Source: Elusimicrobiota bacterium
GTDB lineage: Bacteria; Elusimicrobiota; Elusimicrobia; UBA1565
Reading direction: 5' to 3'
Assembly (NCBI GenBank): GCA_043819795.1
Contig: JBDREN010000149.1
Span: 1 to 20,122 of the forward strand
DNA length: 20,122 nt
The notes beneath the pieces were generated by a model. That model had not been told where the DNA came from. It saw only the letters and a program-made list of their open reading frames with translations, and did not search any database. This document shows, one piece after another, positions 2,679 to 13,686 of the stretch (positions are counted from its first letter, which is position 1; every line of letters begins with the position of its first letter). A program made the translations under genes and the position numbers.

Positions 2679-4094
2679 CTAATCAGACGCGTTCTTGGCC
2701 CGCTTGAGCGCCGCGAGCATCTCCGTAACCCGCGAGAACTTCTCGCGCACCTTGCCTTTGGCCTTGCCGCGCTCGATCTCCAGGCGGTCGAGCACCTTCC
2801 AGTCCTGGAAGCTCACGAGTTCGGGCTGCCTCGAGCGCAGCATCTTCTCGGCTGCCTCGGGCGTCCTGTCGGGATCGCAAGGGGCCTCTTTGCGGCGAAC
2901 GTCCTCCAAAAGGGCTTTCACCGTGGCCACGGAGCAGGCGCGGTTGGTGCCCACCAGGCCGGAAGGACCGCGTTTCGCCCAGCCCACCACGTACTGGCAG
3001 GGGAGCCTCTTGCCCTCTTCGTCCAGGACGCGCCCGCCGTCATTGGGGATGATCCCCGCTTTTCTATGGAACGGAACACCGGGAACGGGCACGCCGTGGT
3101 AGCCCACCGAGCGCAGGATCAACCCGACGGGCAAAGTCTCGAAGCGTCCCGTGCCCCGAGGATGGATGCGTCCCCGCTCGTCCTCATAGAGCTCGTTTTG
3201 CTCGATACGGACCGCCGCGACACGGCCGTCCTCTCCCACGATCTCCACGGGCGACACGCGCAGGCGCAGGCGGACCTTACGGGGCCGGCTTCCCTCGCCT
3301 TTCTTGGACCGGGCCAGCAGGTATTCGACGATCTTCTTCTGGCCTACGTCCGACTCCTTCTCGTAGGCCGCCCGCGAGACAGGATCGAGCTCGGCCTCCT
3401 CCGGACGCACCACCAAGTCCGCGCCGGGCAGAGCGCCCATCTCCTCGATCTCGGGCGGGCTGAATGCGGCCTGGGCCGGGCCGCGCCGTCCCAAGAGATA
3501 CACCTGCCGGATCCGGCTGCGGCGCAGGGCATCGAGCGCGTAGTCCGCGATGTCGGTGCCGGCCAGGGCCTCGGGGTCTTTGGCGAGGATGCGGGCCACG
3601 TCCAGGGCCACGTTCCCGATCCCCACCACGGCCGCGGCCTCGCAGGAAAGGTCGAAGCTTCGTTCGCGGTAGTCCGGATGCCCGTTGTACCAGCCCACGA
3701 ACTCGGTGGCCGCCCAGCTTCCAGGCAGGTCCTCGCCCGGGATTCCCATCTTCCGGTCGCCTTCGCTGCCCACCGCGTAAATGACGCAGTCGTAGTGCCT
3801 CCGCAGGTCCTGGACCTGCACGTGGGTGCCCAAACGGATGTGGCCGAAGAACTGGAAGCGCGGGTCCGAGGCGATTCGCTCGTAGATCGCGGTGACCCGC
3901 TTGATTTTATGGTGGTCGGGGGCCACGCCCCCGCGGACCAGCCCGTAGGGGGTCGGCAGCCGGTCGAGCATGTCCACCCGCACCGCGAGGCCGCATTGGA
4001 GCAACGCCTCCGCCGCGTAGAAACCCGCCGGACCCGAGCCGACGATGACCGCCCGCAGGGGACGCTCTGGGACGCCAAGGCGCCTCTTCTCCAT
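2679..4094 (-). CDS. fprA: Ferredoxin-NADP+ reductase, FprA/adrenodoxin-reductase type (FAD-dependent oxidoreductase)
   Basis: FAD motif VIVGSGPAGFYAA, PTPYGLVRGGVAPDH, NADPH motif VVGIGNVALDVAR, GRRGPAQAAF and GWAKRGPSGLVG. The true start is likely the ATG at 4094 (471 aa), not the 700-aa ORF-track start. Confidence 0.92.
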   Translation of the reverse strand: MEKRRLGVPERPLRAVIVGSGPAGFYAAEALLQCGLAVRVDMLDRLPTPYGLVRGGVAPDHHKIKRVTAIYERIASDPRFQFFGHIRLGTHVQVQDLRRHYDCVIYAVGSEGDRKMGIPGEDLPGSWAATEFVGWYNGHPDYRERSFDLSCEAAAVVGIGNVALDVARILAKDPEALAGTDIADYALDALRRSRIRQVYLLGRRGPAQAAFSPPEIEEMGALPGADLVVRPEEAELDPVSRAAYEKESDVGQKKIVEYLLARSKKGEGSRPRKVRLRLRVSPVEIVGEDGRVAAVRIEQNELYEDERGRIHPRGTGRFETLPVGLILRSVGYHGVPVPGVPFHRKAGIIPNDGGRVLDEEGKRLPCQYVVGWAKRGPSGLVGTNRACSVATVKALLEDVRRKEAPCDPDRTPEAAEKMLRSRQPELVSFQDWKVLDRLEIERGKAKGKVREKFSRVTEMLAALKRAKNASD

Positions 4095-4107
4095 ACCCGG
4101 TAGCATA
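4095..4107 (-). promoter_or_regulatory. Putative -10 element for a leaderless reductase mRNA
   Basis: Minus-strand TATGCT (4107-4102) lies 7 nt before ATG 4094, and no Shine-Dalgarno is visible. Confidence 0.45.
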
Positions 4108-4177
4108 GCGGAACTGGGCGGGCCGCGCCAGAGCCATTTATGTCGGACGCCCTGAGTATGCGAGAAAAATCGGGAGC

Positions 4178-4206
4178 TTGACACGCGCGGCGGGCAATTG
4201 TATAAG
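4178..4206 (+). promoter_or_regulatory. Sigma70-type promoter of the metal-uptake operon
   Basis: TTGACA (4178-4183), a 17-bp spacer and TATAAG (4201-4206), 26 nt before ATG 4233. Confidence 0.8.
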
Positions 4207-4232
4207 CAAGAGGAATACGGGGCATTTTGGAC

Positions 4233-4526
4233 ATGAGGAAGAACCGAAGCGCGTGGGTGAGGCTGGCGGCCGCGGGGCTCGCGCTTTCCTTCGCATATCT
4301 GTACGCGGTGGTCCTTCCGAGCCATCGTCATGCCGATGGCCGGGTCCATGAAGATTGCGTCAGCTGTATCACGGCGGCGCAAGACCTCCAGGCTCCCGCC
4401 ACCGGCGGGACGCTTCCCGAACCGGGACTCCGCCCGGTCGGAGAGACGCCCGCCTTCCGCATCTCGCCCGTCTTGCGGAGGGTCTTCGCCTTCTTCCGCC
4501 TGCGCGCCCCTCCCCTCTTGGGCTAG
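4233..4526 (+). CDS. DUF2946-like small leader protein with a membrane/signal segment, a His/Cys metal motif and a C-terminal RAPP (putative ribosome-arrest peptide)
   Basis: 97 aa: basic N-terminus, hydrophobic LAAAGLALSFAYLYAVVLP, HRHADGRVHEDCVSC, a Pro-rich spacer, then FFRLRAPPLLG*. It is the first gene of a metal transporter operon. Confidence 0.8.
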   Translation: MRKNRSAWVRLAAAGLALSFAYLYAVVLPSHRHADGRVHEDCVSCITAAQDLQAPATGGTLPEPGLRPVGETPAFRISPVLRRVFAFFRLRAPPLLG

Positions 4527-4596
4527 CGGCCGTCCCTCGCTGTAAACAGACGGACAGAGACACCCGCTCCGCGGGTCCCCGACCGATACCAAGAGG
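4514..4596 (+). promoter_or_regulatory. Predicted anti-SD/SD stem sequestering the RBS of the barrel gene
   Basis: CCTCTTGG (4514-4521) is the exact reverse complement of CCAAGAGG (4589-4596), which contains the AAGAGG SD 6 nt before ATG 4603. A small hairpin (ACCCGC-TCC-GCGGGT, 4562-4576) lies between the arms. Confidence 0.6.
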
Positions 4597-4602
4597 TTCC
4601 GC

Positions 4603-5850
4603 ATGATGAAACCATTCGCGAAAAGCGTTCTACTTTTCGGCCTATGCTCGATGATGCCGGCCGCCGTGATCCGAGCCCAAGAGCCGGAGTCCGCCGAGCT
4701 CGAGGCGCTTCGGCGCCGTGCCCGGTCCGAAGCCTCCCAGGAGGAGGCGCGCGAGGAAGTCGAGCAGCTCCCCGTATTCAAGTCCGGAGCCGTGGGGCTT
4801 CAGGCGCTCAACCCGGAGATCAGCGTCACCGGGGACATGTGGGCCCAGTACAAAGACGACCAATCCACGGGCGACACGCACAGGAAGTTCAACTTCCGCG
4901 GCCTGGGGCTGCACATCGAGTCCTACCTGGACCCCTACACTCGGTTCAAGACGGCGATCGGGTTCAATGGGAACGGCGCCGAGTTCGAGGAGGCCTATTT
5001 CATCCGCTACGGGCTGCTGCCGGACGTCAACCTCATGGCCGGCAAATTCCGGCAGCAGTTCGGCGTGGTGAACCGCTGGCACAAGCACGGCCTCGACCAG
5101 TTCGACCACCCCCTGGCTCTGCGGCGGATATTCGGCGACGAGGGGCTCAACCAAATCGGGGCCTCCTTCGAGTGGGCCATGCCCGAGCTCGGGGCGGCCT
5201 CCCAGCAGCTCGACATCCAGACGACGAACGGCACGAACGCGTCGCTGTTCTCCGAGAACAACCGGGAGAAGCCGTCCATCCTCGCGCGCTACAAGAACTA
5301 CCGCGACCTCACGGACGCCACCTACCTGGAGATGGGCCTGAGCGGCCTGGTGGGCTGGAACGACCGATGGACCCTGGCCAGCGGCGCAAAGGTGAACGGC
5401 ACGCGGGCTACCGGCGTCTACGGGGCCGACCTGACGCTCTTCTGGGAGCCCACCGGACGCATGCGCTACCGCGACTTCCTCTGGCGGACCGAGGGCTATG
5501 TGATGACCCGGAGCATCCAGGCCCCGGACGGGTCCGGGCAGGACACCATCAACGCCTGGGGCATGTACTCCAATATCCAGACCAAGGTCTCCCGGACGGT
5601 GGAGGTCGGCCTGCGGGGCGACTTCTACCGCCCGGACACGAAGGCCTATTCGTCCGGGAACCACGCGGTGACGAGGCCCAACCCCTATCAATGGCAGGCG
5701 GGCCCCTACCTCACCTGGCACCAGAGCCCGTTCATCCGTTTCCGCATCGAGTACGACCACCTCGCGGTGAGAGGTCTCGGCGCGCGCGAGGACGTCGTCA
5801 TCGGGCAGGCGATCTTCTCCGCCGGCCCGCACAAGCACGATCGGTATTGA
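4603..5850 (+). CDS. Outer-membrane beta-barrel/porin-like protein associated with metal (Zn-type) uptake
   Basis: Signal peptide (..AVIRA/QEP), a short coiled segment, QALNPEISVTGD, amphipathic beta-strands, His motifs WHKHGLDQFDHP and C-terminal GPHKHDRY with a terminal aromatic residue. It lies directly upstream of a metal-binding protein gene. Confidence 0.72.
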   Translation: MMKPFAKSVLLFGLCSMMPAAVIRAQEPESAELEALRRRARSEASQEEAREEVEQLPVFKSGAVGLQALNPEISVTGDMWAQYKDDQSTGDTHRKFNFRGLGLHIESYLDPYTRFKTAIGFNGNGAEFEEAYFIRYGLLPDVNLMAGKFRQQFGVVNRWHKHGLDQFDHPLALRRIFGDEGLNQIGASFEWAMPELGAASQQLDIQTTNGTNASLFSENNREKPSILARYKNYRDLTDATYLEMGLSGLVGWNDRWTLASGAKVNGTRATGVYGADLTLFWEPTGRMRYRDFLWRTEGYVMTRSIQAPDGSGQDTINAWGMYSNIQTKVSRTVEVGLRGDFYRPDTKAYSSGNHAVTRPNPYQWQAGPYLTWHQSPFIRFRIEYDHLAVRGLGAREDVVIGQAIFSAGPHKHDRY

Positions 5851-5878
5851 TCCTCGTTTTCCCGAAGGAGGCACGCAG

Positions 5879-6931
5879 ATGAGACTAAGCAGACCGATCT
5901 CGACGCTCCTGGCCCTCGGCATCCTCGCCGCGGCGGCCGGCCCGGCCGCGGCGCGGCTGCGGGTGGTCACGACCCTCCCGGACTACGCCGACTTCGTCAA
6001 GCGCATCGGAGGCGACCGCGTCTCGGTCGAGCATATCGTGCTGGGCGACCAGGACGCGCACTTCATCCGGCCCAAGCCGTCGTTCGTTAACCTGGTCCGA
6101 AAGGCCGACGTCCTCGTGGAGACCGGGCTCGACCTGGAACTGTGGCTTCCCACCGTGGTGGACCGGTCCGGCAACACGCGGGTCCGCAGCGGGCAGGAGG
6201 GCTACGTCTCCGCGGCGCAGGGGATGCCCCTCCTGGAGAAGCCCGGCGTCATGTCCCGCAGCGAGGGCGGCGTGCACATCTACGGCAATACCCACGTGAC
6301 CTGCAGCCCGCTGCAGATGCGTATCGCGGCGCGCAACATCGCCAACGGCCTGATCAAGAACGACCCAGAGGGCAAGACGGCCTACCTTGAGAACCTGAAA
6401 GCGCTGGAGGACGAGCTCGACAGGCGCATCTTCGGCGCGGAGCTGGTCCGGCTCCTGGGCGGCGAGACCCTCGCGGACCTGGCCCAGAAAGGGCGGGTCG
6501 TGGCCTTCCTTGAAGAGAACGAGTACAAAGGCGCACCCATGATCGAGCGGCTCGGCGGGTGGATGAAGGAGATGCTTCCCCTGCGCGGGGCATCCATCGT
6601 GAGCTACCACAAGAACTGGGTCTACTTCCTGAGCCTTTTCGGCCTCAACGAGGCGGGGACGATCGAGCCCAAGCCAGGCATCCCCCCGTCTCCCAAGCAC
6701 GTGACCCGGCTCGTGGAGCTCATGCGCGAACGCGGAATACGCATCATCCTGGCCGCCAATTACTTCGACAAACAGCATGTGCGGACCGTGGCGGCCAAGG
6801 TCGGCGCGGAGCCGGTGATCGTGCCCTTGTACGTTGGAGGCGCGCCCGGAGCGGATGATTACTTCCAGCTCGTCGACCACTGGGTGGCTTCGCTGCTCAA
6901 GGCCGCCCGGAAGGTCGAAGTCGCGCGATAG
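5879..6931 (+). CDS. Metal ABC transporter substrate-binding protein (ZnuA/TroA/PsaA cluster A-I family)
   Basis: Signal peptide, LRVVTTLPDY, GDQDAHFIRPKP, GLDLELWL, GGVHIYGNTH, SYHKNWVYF and IEPKPGIPPSPKH. A GGAGG RBS precedes it. Confidence 0.92.
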   Translation: MRLSRPISTLLALGILAAAAGPAAARLRVVTTLPDYADFVKRIGGDRVSVEHIVLGDQDAHFIRPKPSFVNLVRKADVLVETGLDLELWLPTVVDRSGNTRVRSGQEGYVSAAQGMPLLEKPGVMSRSEGGVHIYGNTHVTCSPLQMRIAARNIANGLIKNDPEGKTAYLENLKALEDELDRRIFGAELVRLLGGETLADLAQKGRVVAFLEENEYKGAPMIERLGGWMKEMLPLRGASIVSYHKNWVYFLSLFGLNEAGTIEPKPGIPPSPKHVTRLVELMRERGIRIILAANYFDKQHVRTVAAKVGAEPVIVPLYVGGAPGADDYFQLVDHWVASLLKAARKVEVAR

Positions 6932-6942
6932 GAGGAGGCGGA

Positions 6943-7761
6943 TTGCCCGAAGTCGTCACGTTCTTTCTGGCCCAGCTGTCGCTCTTGGCGGTGGTTCTGG
7001 TGCTCCATACCTATATGGGGCTGCACATCATCCGCCGGGGCCTGATCTTCTGCGACTTGGCCCTGGACCAGCTGGCGGCCCTGGGAGCCATCGTCGGGCT
7101 GGGCCTGGGGGTCGAGTACGGCTCCGCGGGGTCCTACCTGCTCTCTTTGGCGGCCGTGACGGTGGGCGCGGCGCTCCTGGCCGTGGTCAAGCCCAAGAGC
7201 CGCCTCATCCCGCGCGAAGCGGTGATCGGCATCCTCTACGGCTTGGCCCTGGCGGCCTCGCTCATGACCACAGACAAGCTCTCGCGAGGGGCGGACTACC
7301 TCACCAAGACCCTGACCGGTTCGCTCCTGTGGGTCACCTGGCCGCTCATCGTGACCACGGCGGTCGTCTACGCGGGCCTCATCGTGTTCCACTTCGTGTA
7401 CCGCGAGAGGTTCGTGAGCCTGGCCGAAGAGCCCGGCAAGCTGAAGCGGGAAGAGCTATGGGACTTCCTGTTCTTCGCCTCCCAGGGCGTCATCACGATC
7501 CTCATCGTGCCCATCGCGGGGGTCCTTCTGGCCTTCGGTTTCCTCATGATCCCGGCGGCCATGGCTACCATGTTCACGCGCGGCTGGGTCCGCGGGACGG
7601 TCCTAGGCTGGTCGCTGGGCTTCGTGGCCTGCGTGCTCGGCGTGACGGCCTCATATCTACTGAACTGGCCCTACGGGCCCACGCTGCTGCTCTCGCTGGG
7701 CCTGTTCTTCTTCTGCGCCTTGGCCCTGCGCGCCCTGCTCCCGACGGGAGGCTCCGCATGA
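6943..7761 (+). CDS. Metal ABC transporter permease (ZnuB/ABC-3 family), subunit 1
   Basis: TTG start after GGAGGAGG. Motifs GLHIIRRGLIFCDLALDQLAALG, EAVIGILY and GVLLAFGFLMIPA; highly hydrophobic. Confidence 0.88.
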   Translation: MPEVVTFFLAQLSLLAVVLVLHTYMGLHIIRRGLIFCDLALDQLAALGAIVGLGLGVEYGSAGSYLLSLAAVTVGAALLAVVKPKSRLIPREAVIGILYGLALAASLMTTDKLSRGADYLTKTLTGSLLWVTWPLIVTTAVVYAGLIVFHFVYRERFVSLAEEPGKLKREELWDFLFFASQGVITILIVPIAGVLLAFGFLMIPAAMATMFTRGWVRGTVLGWSLGFVACVLGVTASYLLNWPYGPTLLLSLGLFFFCALALRALLPTGGSA

Positions 7762-8582
7762 CGGGCTTTTTGCAGTTCATGCTCTTGCCGCTCTGCGCGT
7801 GCCTGCTGATGATCATGATCCTCGCCTACCTGGGCATGCACGTGCTGGAGCGGGAGATCATCTTCATAGACATCGCCCTGGCCCAGATCGCGGTGGTGGG
7901 CGCCATCGTCGCCATGGTGGCCTTCCACGCCGAGCATCACACCCTCCTGGCCAACCTGTGCGCCTTCGGCGCCACGCTCCTGGCGGCGGCCTTCTACGCC
8001 TTGGCGCAAAAAGGGGTGCGGGGGCTGTCGATCGAGACGATCATCGGGATCAGCTACGCCGTGGCCGCGGCCGCGGCGCTCCTCTTCGTGGGCCTGAGCG
8101 CGGAAGGCCACGCCCACGTGCACCATATGCTCAGCGGCAGCCTCCTTTGGATCAGCTGGAAGGAGCTCCTGTATTGCTGCGCCGCGGCCTTGCCGGCCGG
8201 AGGCGTCTTTCTCGCCTTCCGCGGAAGGTTCTGGGAGCTCTCGCGCGGCCACGCGAAGAGCGGGGCGAAGGCCCGCGAGGGCGCGCTCGGGTGGAACCTC
8301 CTGTTCTACGCGCTCCTCGGCGTCGTGATCACCGCCTTCGTCCGGATCGCCGGGGTCCTGGTGGTGTTCTCCTTCCTCATCATGCCCGCGACCTTCGCCG
8401 CCATGTTCTCGGAAAGCCTGGGGCGGCGCTGGGCCGTCGCCTGCCTGTGCGGAGCCGCGGCGTCGGTCGCGGGCCTTCTCTTCTCCTACTATCTCGACTT
8501 CTCGGTGGGACCTTCGGTGGTGTCCTTCCTCGGCGCGGCGCTGGTCGCCGGCGCCGCGGTCAAGCGCCTCACCGCCGGATAG
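7758..8582 (+). CDS. Metal ABC transporter permease (ZnuB/ABC-3 family), subunit 2, with His-rich loops
   Basis: ATGA overlap with the previous gene, 274 aa starting MTGFLQFM. Motifs YLGMHVLEREIIFIDIALAQIA, ETIIGISY and GVLVVFSFLIMPA. Loops FHAEHH and EGHAHVHH. Confidence 0.88.
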   Translation: MTGFLQFMLLPLCACLLMIMILAYLGMHVLEREIIFIDIALAQIAVVGAIVAMVAFHAEHHTLLANLCAFGATLLAAAFYALAQKGVRGLSIETIIGISYAVAAAAALLFVGLSAEGHAHVHHMLSGSLLWISWKELLYCCAAALPAGGVFLAFRGRFWELSRGHAKSGAKAREGALGWNLLFYALLGVVITAFVRIAGVLVVFSFLIMPATFAAMFSESLGRRWAVACLCGAAASVAGLLFSYYLDFSVGPSVVSFLGAALVAGAAVKRLTAG

Positions 8583-8632: not shown

Positions 8633-9664
8633 TTACAGCGCGGAAAGGAGCGCCTTCGCGCGGGCGGCCCAGCTGGAGTCGCCCAAGATCGAGACCGCGC
8701 CTTGGAGATAGCCGACCGCCCTGGAGCGCGTCTTCTTCTTCTTGAGGTAGTGCTTCCCCAGGCGGAACGAGATTTCCGCCTCCACATCCTTCTTGTCCCT
8801 CTCGCGGTAGGTCTCGGTGTTCCACCAGCGCGCCTCGTCGCCGCGCACCAGCTTCTCCAGGAAGTGGAGGTCCTTGACGCCCCGCTTGCGGCGCAGCCGC
8901 CACCGCGGCAGGAACATCTGGTTGGTGGCCCGGGTCACCCGGACGGGCACGCTGTTGGGCGCCCGCTCGACGGCCTTGTCCATCCGCCGGATCCCGCGCT
9001 GAAGCCAGAACCACTTCTTGATGGGGTTCCACGAGTCCCGCGCGACGAGGACCTCGGAGCTCCCAAGATAGGCCGGCAGCTCCTCGTCTTCGGGCGCGAG
9101 CTTGACGGCCCGGCCCAGATACTTGAACGCCATCTTGGAGAAACCCTTGGACCGATGCTTGTAGCTGGCCTGATGGTAGGCGATCCCGAGCCGCTTGTTC
9201 GCCAAGGGATCGTCCGGACGCGCGGTCACCGCCTTCTCCAGATGCTCGATGAAGCGCCCCCATGCTTCGGGGGCGTCGGCGCCAGCGGGGCCTCCCGAGC
9301 CCTTGGGACCGCTGGCGGCCCTGGAGCCCTCCGTCGCTTTGGGGGCCTCGGCCGCTTTGGAGCCCTCGGCGGCCTGGGAACCGCCCGAGGACTGGGAACT
9401 ACTGGCGGCCCTGGAGCCCTCCGTCGCCTTAGGGGCCTCGGCCGCCCTGGACCCCTCGGCGGCCTGGGAGCCGTCGGCCGTCTGAGGTCGGTCGAAGTGA
9501 TCCAGAGTGATCTTGCCGTCCCCGCCTATGACCTTCTTCTCGCCGTAATCGATGAGGACGATCTCGCCCCCCGGCGGCCGGCACGCCGGCGAGGACACCG
9601 CCACGGAAGCCGGCAGGAAGGCGGCGGCCAGACCGCCGGCAAGCATCCATACCACTCTGTTCAT
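8633..9664 (-). CDS. Exported hypothetical protein with a low-complexity Ala/Ser/Glu/Gly linker and a TPR-like helical domain
   Basis: Start MNRVVWML at 9664 after GGGAGGG, with a hydrophobic N-terminus. TPR-like segments LEKAVTARPDDPLANKRLGIAY, LGRAVKLAPED and MDKAVERAPNS. Confidence 0.75.
   Translation of the reverse strand: MNRVVWMLAGGLAAAFLPASVAVSSPACRPPGGEIVLIDYGEKKVIGGDGKITLDHFDRPQTADGSQAAEGSRAAEAPKATEGSRAASSSQSSGGSQAAEGSKAAEAPKATEGSRAASGPKGSGGPAGADAPEAWGRFIEHLEKAVTARPDDPLANKRLGIAYHQASYKHRSKGFSKMAFKYLGRAVKLAPEDEELPAYLGSSEVLVARDSWNPIKKWFWLQRGIRRMDKAVERAPNSVPVRVTRATNQMFLPRWRLRRKRGVKDLHFLEKLVRGDEARWWNTETYRERDKKDVEAEISFRLGKHYLKKKKTRSRAVGYLQGAVSILGDSSWAARAKALLSAL
9312..9472 (-). repeat. Intragenic 90-bp-period duplication in the low-complexity linker
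   Basis: CTGGCGGCCCTGGAGCCCTCCGTCGC occurs at 9312 and 9402. It encodes GSQAAEGS(R/K)AAEAPKATEGSRAAS twice. Confidence 0.85.
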
Positions 9665-11177: not shown

Positions 11178-13686
11178 ATGAACGCGATATCCTGGCGGGA
11201 CAAGACGATCTATTTCATCCTCACCGACCGCTTCTGCAACGGCGATACGTCCAACGACGATTTCAGGAAAGGCGAGTACGACCCCGGCAACGACGACTGC
11301 TATCAGGGCGGCGACCTCAAGGGCGTCGCCCGGAGGCTCCCCTTCATCAAAAGCCTGGGCTTCGACGACATCTGGATCACCCCGCCCGTGCACAACCAGT
11401 GGATCAACCCGTACGTTCCGACGCGCGGCTTCCACGGCTACTGGGCCTACGATTTCATGCGGGTGGACCCGCACCTGGGGACGCTGGCGGACTACAGGGC
11501 GCTGGTGGCCGAGGCGCACCGCCTCGGCATCAAGGTCATCCAGGACATCGTGGTCAACCACACGGGGAACTACTTCACCGTGGACGAGAAAGGCTACGAC
11601 CCGAAGCATCCCGAACGGAACTGGAGGGAGCTCGCGGAGTCCTATCCGCCCGGCGAATCGCCCAAGGCGCCCAACGATCCCGTGTTCCGCATGAACAACC
11701 CGAACATCCCGGAGCACCGGAAGGCGGCGGCCTACAACTTCACGCCCAACATCTCGGACTTCAAGAGCCGGAAGCAGACCCTCACCTATTCGATGGGGGA
11801 CCTCGACGACATCAACCTGCGCAGCCCCCATCGCCGCGCGGCGCCTCAAGGAGATCTACCGGTACTGGATAGACGAGGTGGGCATCGACGGCTTCCGCGT
11901 GGACACCGTCTATTACACGCCCGAGGACTTCTACGAGGGCTTCCTTTACGACAAGGACCCCGAGAGCCCCGGCGTCAAACGTTTCGCCGAGAAAAAGGGG
12001 ATCAAGGACTTCTTCGTCTTCGGCGAGGTCTGGTGCTACGACTACGCGGCGATCAACCGCTACCTCAAGGACGGCCGCACGGTCCGCCTGGATTCGGCCA
12101 TCGACCTGCCGCTCAACGAGGTCCTGAGCAAGGTCTTCTTCCGGAAAGGCCCGACCGATGAGCTCCGGGAGGTCCTCGGGGCGCGCCGACACAACCGGAA
12201 CCTCTGGGTCAACTTCCTGGACAACCACGACGTCGAGCGCATCAACAGCCGGGCCGGCCGGCCGGCGGTGAGGCAGTCCTTGGCGGCCCTCTTCACGCTC
12301 CCGGGGATCCCCTGCGTCACCTACGGGACCGAGGCGGGTTTCAAGGCGGCCAGGCAGAACATGTTCCGGGACGAATGCTGCGATAAGCGCTCCGAGCACT
12401 TCGCATTCCTAAAGGAGATGATCGATTTCCGGAAGAGGCACCCGGCGCTGCGCAGGGGCAGATGCAAGGTCGAGCGGACCTCGCCCGCCGCGGGCGTGCT
12501 GGCCTACTCGGTATTCCACGAGAACGAGCGCTATTTGATGGTGTTCAACACCTCGGCGGACAGGATGTTCCACGACCCCGGATTCCGGGGCCGTGCCGAG
12601 GCCCGGGTTCTGCTCTCGTCGGAAAAAAGAAAGACCGTCTCCGGCCCCATGATCCTGGGGCCGGACTCCTACCTGGTCCTGCGGACGCGCACCCGGAAGG
12701 CCGCGCGCGCCAAGAAGGCGCGCCCTCCGGTGCGGCGTCGACCCCGGCAGGGGCGCCATGCCGGACGCCCTCTGGTCGTGCGTTGGCGGCCGGTGCGGAT
12801 GAGCGCGCTTCCGGGCAAGACCCGCAAGGGCAAGATCGCGATCGACTTCAAGGTCCGCGAGCCGAAGAAGGTCTCGACTCTGTGGCTGCTCGCCGACGAC
12901 GACTACGACGCCAGGCTCCGGGTCCCCGACCCCGCCTCCGGCCGCTACGAGCTGGACACGGCCGGGCTCGGCAACGGAAGGCACCGCATCGCCCTGCTGG
13001 CAAAGACGAAGTCCGGCGCGCTCGCCGCCTCCAACGAGGTCTTTCTCAACGTGGCCAACGACTACCGCCTGATCGCGCGGGCGGCCGTGCCGGAGGAAGG
13101 CAGGGCCGGCGTGGCCCGGAAGCTCCACGCGCCCGGCGATCCGAGCTACGACCGCCAGGTGTCGATGGAGGAAGTAAGCATCCTCACTAGTGGCAAGGAC
13201 CTCCGGATAAAGATTAGAATGTCCAACGTCACCGACGATTGGAACCCGCCCAACGGCTACGACCATGTCTATTTCAGCGTCTTCTTCGATTTCCCGGGAC
13301 GGCCGGGCAAGCGCTTTTTTCCCAAGCTGGACTACGGGCGGGACGATTTCGAGTTCAACGCCGGGTTCCTGCTCTACGGCTGGGGCGCGGTGTCCTTCGG
13401 CGCGGACGACTCGACGCAAGACGCGTACGGGAGCCCCCTGATCGGCGAGGCGGCTCAGCACGCCGACCTGAAGGGCGGGACGATCTCCTTCACGCTCTCG
13501 AAGAAGATCTTCGACGCGCTCGAGACTTTCGCCGGGACGAAGGTATTCCTGTCCACCTGGGACGGCTACCTGGCGGACCTGCGGCCCGTATCGGACAAGA
13601 AGGAGGAATGGAGCTTCTACGCGCTCGACGGCAAGGACGCGAAGGGGCTCCCCAAGGTCTTCGACCACGTGATCATCCGTCTCTGA
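11178..13686 (+). pseudogene. GH13 alpha-amylase/cyclomaltodextrinase-like glycosidase with a C-terminal glucodextranase (DOMON-like) domain; frameshifted near 11829 (pseudogene or sequence error)
   Basis: The first frame has IYFILTDRFCNGD, YQGGDLKG, FHGYW and DIVVNH. The second frame has the catalytic motifs GIDGFRVDT, FGEVW and FLDNHD, plus C-terminal TDDWNPPNGYDHVYFSVFFD. Deleting one C from CCCCC (11825-11829) gives DINLRSPIAARRLKEIYRYWIDEVGIDGFR and a continuous 835-aa ORF. Confidence 0.85.

Follow-up and report, generated by a model that had tools for sequence, protein, structure and literature searches.

The first gene of the metal-import operon described here very likely encodes a cis-acting arrest leader, and this much we hold with high confidence. 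The fuller reading that we favor, and consider probable, is that the arrest peptide works as a switch, in which a stalled ribosome would open the SD of the next gene, a metal (likely zinc) would release the stall, and an RNA stem would then shut the import operon. The gene lies in a stretch of 20,122 nucleotides from an Elusimicrobiota bacterium (the window). Its features and those of the operon that it heads are collected in Table 1.

Table 1. Features of the leader, the intergenic stem and the import operon in the window
Feature	Position	Strand	Basis or remark
Candidate sigma70-like promoter, TTGACA-17 nt-TATAAG	4178-4206	+	read from the sequence
Alternative leader start, TTG	4227	+	
Leader ORF, 97 codons, CruR/DUF2946-like	4233-4526	+	ATG 4233, stop TAG 4524-4526
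Hydrophobic membrane/signal segment, leader residues 11-29	4263-4319	+	sequence; AlphaFold helix
Candidate His/Cys metal site, HxH-x5-H-E-D-CxxC	4323-4367	+	HRH-ADGRV-HED-CVSC, residues 31-45
Spacer of 45 residues, CxxC to RAPP	4368-4502	+	length conserved, sequence not
RAPP arrest motif, residues 91-94	4503-4514	+	followed by LLG, then TAG
Predicted P-site and A-site codons	4509-4511 (P), 4512-4514 (A)	+	geometry transferred from the CruR toeprint
Anti-SD arm, CCTCTTGG	4514-4521	+	inside the footprint predicted for a stalled ribosome
Stop codon and 76-nt intergenic region	4522-4588	+	predicted inner hairpins bring the arms together
SD arm of the barrel gene, CCAAGAGG	4589-4596	+	6 nt ahead of ATG 4603
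Outer-membrane barrel gene, 415 aa	4603-5850	+	Atlas
ZnuA-family substrate-binding protein, His61/His139/His244	5879-6931	+	PF01297, E 2.6e-44
ABC-3 (ZnuB-type) permease 1	6943-7761	+	PF00950
ABC-3 (ZnuB-type) permease 2	7758-8582	+	PF00950; no ATPase gene after it

Anatomy and identity of the leader

A preliminary description of this DNA had outlined a membrane segment, an HxH..CxxC motif, 45 further residues and RAPP, and each of these elements can be read directly in the sequence at the positions given in Table 1. The CVSC motif occupies residues 42-45. Four basic residues stand ahead of the hydrophobic stretch, for which an N-in/C-out orientation is predicted. The AlphaFold model of the leader contains a helix at residues 5-32 with high pLDDT and, with a pTM of 0.34, is informative for the membrane helix alone; the export signal was judged from hydrophobicity, the basic residues and this predicted helix, and not with a dedicated signal-peptide predictor. 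Upstream of the gene, the promoter candidate was not called by a promoter scanner that demands T at position 6 of the -10 element, and a palindrome scan of 4095-4240 found no operator-like palindrome.

The leader had also been described as a CruR/DUF2946-like cis leader, to be checked against the DUF2946 profile. A Pfam scan of the window leader returned DUF2946 (PF11162) as its sole match, at E 0.026 and 15.7 bits, which is below the gathering cut-off of 23.7 bits. Among syntenic leaders, 22 of 61 gave (weak) matches to DUF2946 at E<=0.1, and the cut-off was passed by three (L009, L025 and L031) of 25 that were rescanned, these 25 having been picked mostly from the matches at E<=0.1. The 97-aa protein is present in the Atlas, with a feature match of 0.95 to a cluster that is 44% DUF2946. 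The profile check thus succeeded for relatives of the leader and failed for the window leader itself, which we treat as DUF2946-like but divergent, short of formal family membership; the likeness as such is borne out by the weak match, the Atlas cluster and the passing relatives.

Among characterized systems, CruR (Bp2923 of Bordetella pertussis, DUF2946/PF11162), as presented in the available text of PMC9426467 and PMC12992588, is likewise the first gene of a metal-uptake operon. Both leaders have an export signal, a CxxC, exactly 45 residues and RAPP three residues from the C terminus, and in both loci a long intergenic region leads to an outer-membrane transporter. CruR responds specifically to copper; its operon continues with a TonB-dependent transporter and a PepSY_TM gene, its output is Rho termination, and its signal peptide is dispensable (PMC9426467). 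Unlike CruR, the window leader is not in a copper-homeostasis operon but heads a barrel/ZnuA/ABC-3 operon, with a 415-aa barrel and a ZnuA-type ABC importer, an added His cluster and a predicted, conserved anti-SD stem. CutF of Rhodobacter capsulatus, in the accessible portions of PMC9973294 and bioRxiv 10.1101/2025.02.05.636593, is also a cis-acting exported leader with a periplasmic Cys motif, and its stall opens a stem that hides the SD of the next gene, a property which the window shares by prediction and conservation only. CutF differs in its CxxxC, its poly-Pro end, a stem described as intergenic, a Cu-induced stall and a detoxifying multicopper oxidase as target, whereas the window leader has CxxC, RAPP, an anti-SD in its last codons and an importer as target. 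SecM, ApdA/ApdP and related RAPP-type monitors (PMC10987492, PMC12992588) share an RAPP-type arrest motif, an N-terminal localization signal and an SD exposed by the stall, but they precede sec or yidC genes and respond to the force of translocation, and the available text of these sources describes no conserved His/CxxC site at fixed spacing. No secA, secDF or yidC was found among the window genes downstream of the leader. The window leader is likely CruR-like in anatomy, and probably in sign, and CutF/SecM-like in RNA output.

The downstream operon

The barrel has no Pfam match and no solved relative by profile search, and its fold was assigned from the Atlas; its 415 aa are presumably short for a plugged TonB receptor. 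In the substrate-binding protein, His61, His139 and His244 line up with the conserved His of a zinc-binding protein and are kept in 68/68, 94/94 and 89/89 aligned homologues. We take such a three-His site to mark Zn-type and not Mn/Fe-type binding proteins.

The two operon permeases are the only ABC-3 permeases of the genome, and the ORF map contains no ATPase gene in the window operon. An operon ATPase is also missing from all five close homologous stretches (L118-L122) and from four of 12 kin stretches (L106-L117), and a linked ATPase is present in the other eight; the best match to the kin ATPase in the window genome, which is 90% complete, is only 33% identical. A quick tree places the binding protein among 38 non-kin sequences (99% SH-aLRT), separate from 28 kin sequences, and the window barrel is 24-33% identical to that of kin as against 50-58% for most non-kin loci. 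These sequences suggest that the operon (4233-8582) may have been horizontally acquired. Beyond the operon, 8633-9664 on the minus strand encodes a TPR-like protein whose N-terminal part has short repeats rich in Ala, Ser, Glu and Gly, and an alpha-amylase-family gene is split across two frames (11178-12161 and 11878-13686), likely by a frameshift or an assembly error.

Conservation of the leader

A barrel scan of GTDB genomes gave 69 loci, 36-58% identical, whose record titles include Planctomycetota, Verrucomicrobiota, Kiritimatiellota, Lentisphaerota, Acidobacteriota, Omnitrophota, Hydrogenedentota and Myxococcota. The preliminary description had named a lack of conservation of RAPP and the stem in homologues as grounds for rejection; at the protein level the leader is conserved, with an upstream ORF that has a hydrophobic stretch and a terminal motif close to its stop codon in 60 of the 69 loci. 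For two of the nine leaderless loci the upstream DNA is missing, and several of the rest have a different gene directly abutting the barrel. A further observation concerns a barrel homologue (L053:3001-4155) that has an in-frame stop and no leader.

Together with the window, the 60 loci form a set of 61 leaders, with terminal motifs RAPP (35), RPPP (9), RSPP (6), RGPP (5), TSPP (4) and HSPP (2); PP is invariant and was the search criterion. The CxxC stands 43-47 residues ahead of the motif in 54 leaders, the window included, and six of the seven without a CxxC at this spacing end in HSPP or TSPP. The leaders with a single Cys at the CxxC position and an HSPP or TSPP end are mostly myxococcal (L061-L063, L065, L066, L069). 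C42, C45 and one His column are at least 90% conserved, all 61 leaders have one to eight His between the membrane segment and the CxxC, and 58 carry net positive charge ahead of the membrane segment. Mean column identity is 18%, and the conservation is therefore one of length and motifs and not of spacer sequence. The Arg and Pro of the motif are encoded by varied codons among the loci, so that selection acts on the peptide.

A profile of the 61 leaders retrieved 2028 representatives at E<=0.001, and among the best 150 of these 2028, 149 end close to a PP motif that a CxxC precedes by 41-49 residues. Of 60 kin genomes, 39 have distant barrels only; the same kind of leader occurs in 19 of 29 distant loci fetched from kin genomes.

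The anti-SD stem at the window locus

The perfect pairing that had been claimed between CCTCTTGG (4514-4521) and CCAAGAGG (4589-4596) was confirmed as an exact 8-bp complement. With the P and A sites predicted at 4509-4514, positions 4514-4521 would, given the size of the ribosome footprint, lie inside the ribosome, so that a stall would mean a free SD. For the calculations this footprint was set at P site -12 to +15.

Folding of 4480-4620, proposed earlier as a check, supported the stem in one respect and not in others. The stem closes the minimum-energy fold, but the fold overall is no more stable than shuffles (z = -0.25), for which reason global fold stability is not used as evidence here, and the probability of the stem varies with the folding window, from 0.98, 0.91, 0.78 and 0.53 in four local folds to 0.02 in the 500-nt window 4200-4700. 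Masking of the footprint lowered the cost of SD opening in the three shortest windows (5.0 to 2.5-2.8, 6.0 to 3.6-3.9 and 3.4 to 2.4 kcal/mol), and in the two widest folds shifted it by at most 0.5 kcal/mol in either direction. When the eight codons of the window were recoded synonymously, about 1% of recodings matched the real pairing with the SD (z -2.9 to -3.6); one of four control windows in the window leader (-36) was also low under one null (p 0.026). No close kin were found for covariation of this particular stem, kin barrels being only 24-33% identical.

Other RNA elements were also considered. Rfam gave no match at E<=1 in 4050-4700 and, in 20 of the 69 loci, a single tRNA at gathering score and nothing else. 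A riboswitch was rejected for lack of an Rfam match, and an intrinsic terminator between leader and barrel was rejected, with none on the plus strand there.

SD pairing across loci

For the comparison among loci, start codons were chosen by SD strength and signal peptide, with nine corrected by eye, and one of 19 kin loci was dropped for a weak SD. SD-footprint pairing at P>0.5 is predicted in 34 of 61 loci and 9 of 18 kin loci, compared with 12 of 150 own-genome control gene pairs, and masking lowers the cost of SD opening by over 1 kcal/mol in 39, 13 and 26 of these, respectively; the controls are the first 150 same-strand pairs with an SD among 622 shuffled pairs from a crude gene caller, and are unmatched for GC or for Pro codons, which are C-rich by necessity. 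Predicted pairing is absent in the remaining 27 loci.

The synonymous control is matched for peptide. With two codon nulls, recoding at the stall site gave a mean z of -0.93 or -0.83, and 13 or 12 of 61 leaders reached p<0.05, compared with a mean z of -0.05 to +0.16 and 0-5 of 61 leaders in four upstream control windows. With loci clustered by barrel identity, the stall-site bias has p values of 0.055, 0.054, 0.006 and 0.002 for 8, 17, 22 and 25 clusters. Ser codons after the motif are TCC or TCT in 46 of 53 cases, most of them stemming from one planctomycete clade, versus 37% of 465 elsewhere in leaders and 25% in barrels. CCT encodes the first Pro in 26 of 61 leaders, in 7 of 22 after de-replication (a weak signal) and in 12 of 19 kin loci. 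The position of the anti-SD arm shifts among loci between the PP codons, the tail codons, the stop and just past the stop.

In nine RPPP planctomycete loci, the only helix found by RNAalifold joins the stop region to the SD. In this helix 90% of cells are paired, compared with 35-52% in slid controls, and three of 13 pairs have changed on both sides, the structure having been named from the same nine, related sequences. Cognate SD pairing exceeded non-cognate pairing in an unmatched comparison (0/10000 permutations), but with one locus per cluster (22 clusters) and GC bins the difference was not significant (p 0.08), and therefore no cross-phylum covariation is claimed. Conservation of the stem, put forward earlier, is thus upheld by codon-level selection and by the loci with predicted pairing, and not by the loci that lack it or by locus-specific covariation. 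Synonymous codons at the predicted stall site are biased towards SD complementarity beyond chance, although not universally.

Proposed mechanism and alternatives

In the switch that we favor, scarcity of the metal (likely zinc) would leave the ribosome stalled at RAPP, holding the barrel SD open. Once the His/CxxC site bound metal, the stall would be released, the stem would hide the SD and the import operon would be turned off, with Rho or decay probably silencing the remaining operon. Two features, a stall with one Pro codon in the P site and the other in the A site and its relief by metal through the CxxC, are transferred by analogy from CruR, which is described as arresting in vitro with the third and fourth RAPP residues in the P and A sites (PMC12992588). 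The membrane segment may anchor the chain in SecYEG and so bring the CxxC to the point where the channel opens into the periplasm; folding of the His/Cys site upon metal binding could there exert a pull on the arrested chain.

The spacer of 45 residues had been judged about long enough to put the metal motif outside the exit tunnel. This estimate stands in a refined form, as roughly the distance from the PTC to the SecYEG exit, because C45 and C42 lie 48 and 51 residues from Pro93, the P-site proline, and about 50 extended residues are reported to span the PTC to the periplasmic exit of SecYEG (PMC7513700). The LepB periplasmic domain is reported to fold only about 70 residues from the PTC (bioRxiv 2021.02.06.430026), and therefore the CxxC may still be inside the channel. 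With CruR, moreover, functioning without its signal peptide, periplasmic sensing is no more than plausible.

The best-surviving alternative, which we nevertheless regard as unlikely, is the mechanism of CruR proper, where a stalled ribosome would shield a C-rich rut, metal would release it, and Rho would terminate in the intergenic region with SD complementarity being secondary. This is the demonstrated mechanism of the closest characterized relative, and the genome encodes Rho. C exceeds G around RAPP in 60 of 61 leaders, with a skew of 0.18 in the window (top 2-5% of the coding windows of the genome), yet four-fold sites in the spacer contain C and G about equally (C 362, G 360), and the skew therefore mostly tracks Pro/Leu/Ser content. 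The regions between leader and barrel are long enough to fit such a scheme (38-259 nt, median 113), although that of the window is predicted to be structured and the synonymous bias is specifically towards SD pairing.

The direction of the favored switch is suggested by its target: the downstream genes form an importer, and therefore metal should end the stall, as in CruR. The same genome holds a second leader (L104, G000:C21:1646-2050), in which RAPP occurs twice and a Cys-Cys site is present. It is flanked by the gene of a metal-sensitive repressor (PF02583) and by that of an outer-membrane efflux protein (PF02321), and at its second RAPP the SD is predicted to be masked (ddG 6.2). This leader may have the opposite sign; because it heads a probable efflux gene, anatomy alone gives no polarity.

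We consider it quite improbable that the window leader has the polarity of CutF or another signal, such that copper or CxxC redox would induce the stall and turn the operon on, or that Cu, Ni or Co would be sensed and not Zn. CutF provides a precedent with its SD-hiding, Cu-induced system, and the second RAPP leader, by its link to a repressor and an efflux gene, is compatible with it; the downstream genes of the window, however, are uptake components with a three-His ZnuA-type site, for which induction by metal would be the wrong logic. His-only relatives are reported to be linked to Ni/Co genes (PMC9973294). CbiM cobalt/nickel-transport genes adjoin two of our loci, upstream in L025 and L057, and these genes together with the copper specificity of CruR keep Ni, Co and Cu as candidates.

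Leaderless kin operons also argue against the polarity of CutF by their Fur-family repressor arrangement, seen in five of ten, where a Fur-family gene is divergently oriented and a Fur-like box overlaps the promoter. These five (L086, L088, L091, L096 and L098) share a 16-base AT-rich box; L091 has what looks like a frameshift in its Fur-family gene. The five loci, four of them close kin, are themselves the source of the box, and 16 planctomycete loci have a Fur-family gene ahead of the leader and in its orientation, so that the Fur arrangement is a hint only. Operator control of leader-bearing promoters was considered and rejected, with no palindrome in the window and Fur-like boxes (<=3 mismatches) at only one of 61 close and one of 19 kin leader-bearing loci. 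Typing of the Fur-family neighbors as Zur, Nur or Fur gave no assignment. Ahead of the Fur-family gene or the barrel, L052 (439-1191) and 16 further planctomycete loci encode a His-rich membrane protein that matches nothing in Pfam or NCBIfam. Zinc is our best guess from the sequence of the binding protein, with about an even chance of being correct.

A leader that senses no metal at all, acting as a SecM-like monitor of membrane insertion or as a coupling device by which the SD is constitutively kept open, would fit the Sec/YidC-monitor anatomy of RAPP with an N-terminal localization signal and the seven of 61 leaders without CxxC at the usual spacing, but is very improbable given that the genes downstream are not sec or yidC, that CxxC, His and spacer length are conserved though spacer sequence is not, and that CruR is reported to need the same CxxC and spacing for its metal response (PMC9426467).

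The favored switch in its most extended form, as a membrane-anchored nascent-chain zinc sensor at the SecYEG mouth that occurs in many little-studied phyla, fills the role that a Fur-family repressor has where the operon lacks a leader and serves an importer without a linked ATPase, is a tentative and somewhat doubtful proposal.

Relation to published work and significance

The leader family and both outputs are already in print. The pairing of such a leader with a ZnuA operon is present in the 4B source data of Fujiwara 2025 (PMC12992588), in at least nine rows, one of them annotated DUF2946; in the available portion of that source these rows are list entries only, none described as tested, and the main text, as far as available, has no occurrence of 'zinc', 'Znu' or 'Shine'. 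Ozturk 2023 (PMC9973294) already suggests that the family has non-copper members, and the available text of Roy 2022 (PMC9426467) notes the lack of a described riboswitch for either zinc or copper. A search of the literature exclusive of most subscription papers found no paper that describes or tests a zinc-linked RAPP leader or its stem.

The characterized leaders of the CruR/CutF family respond to copper. If the leader described here reads zinc or another non-copper metal, nascent-chain sensing would be extended to a second metal, and a zinc-reading leader would also join the polarity of CruR to the RNA output of CutF. The importer leader and the efflux leader of this one genome offer a ready-made pair for comparison. 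More broadly, the loci form a natural series in their terminal motif (RAPP, RGPP, RSPP, RPPP, HSPP, TSPP), in the presence or absence of CxxC, and in leader versus Fur box, which makes it possible to test where metal is sensed and how one architecture yields opposite signs.
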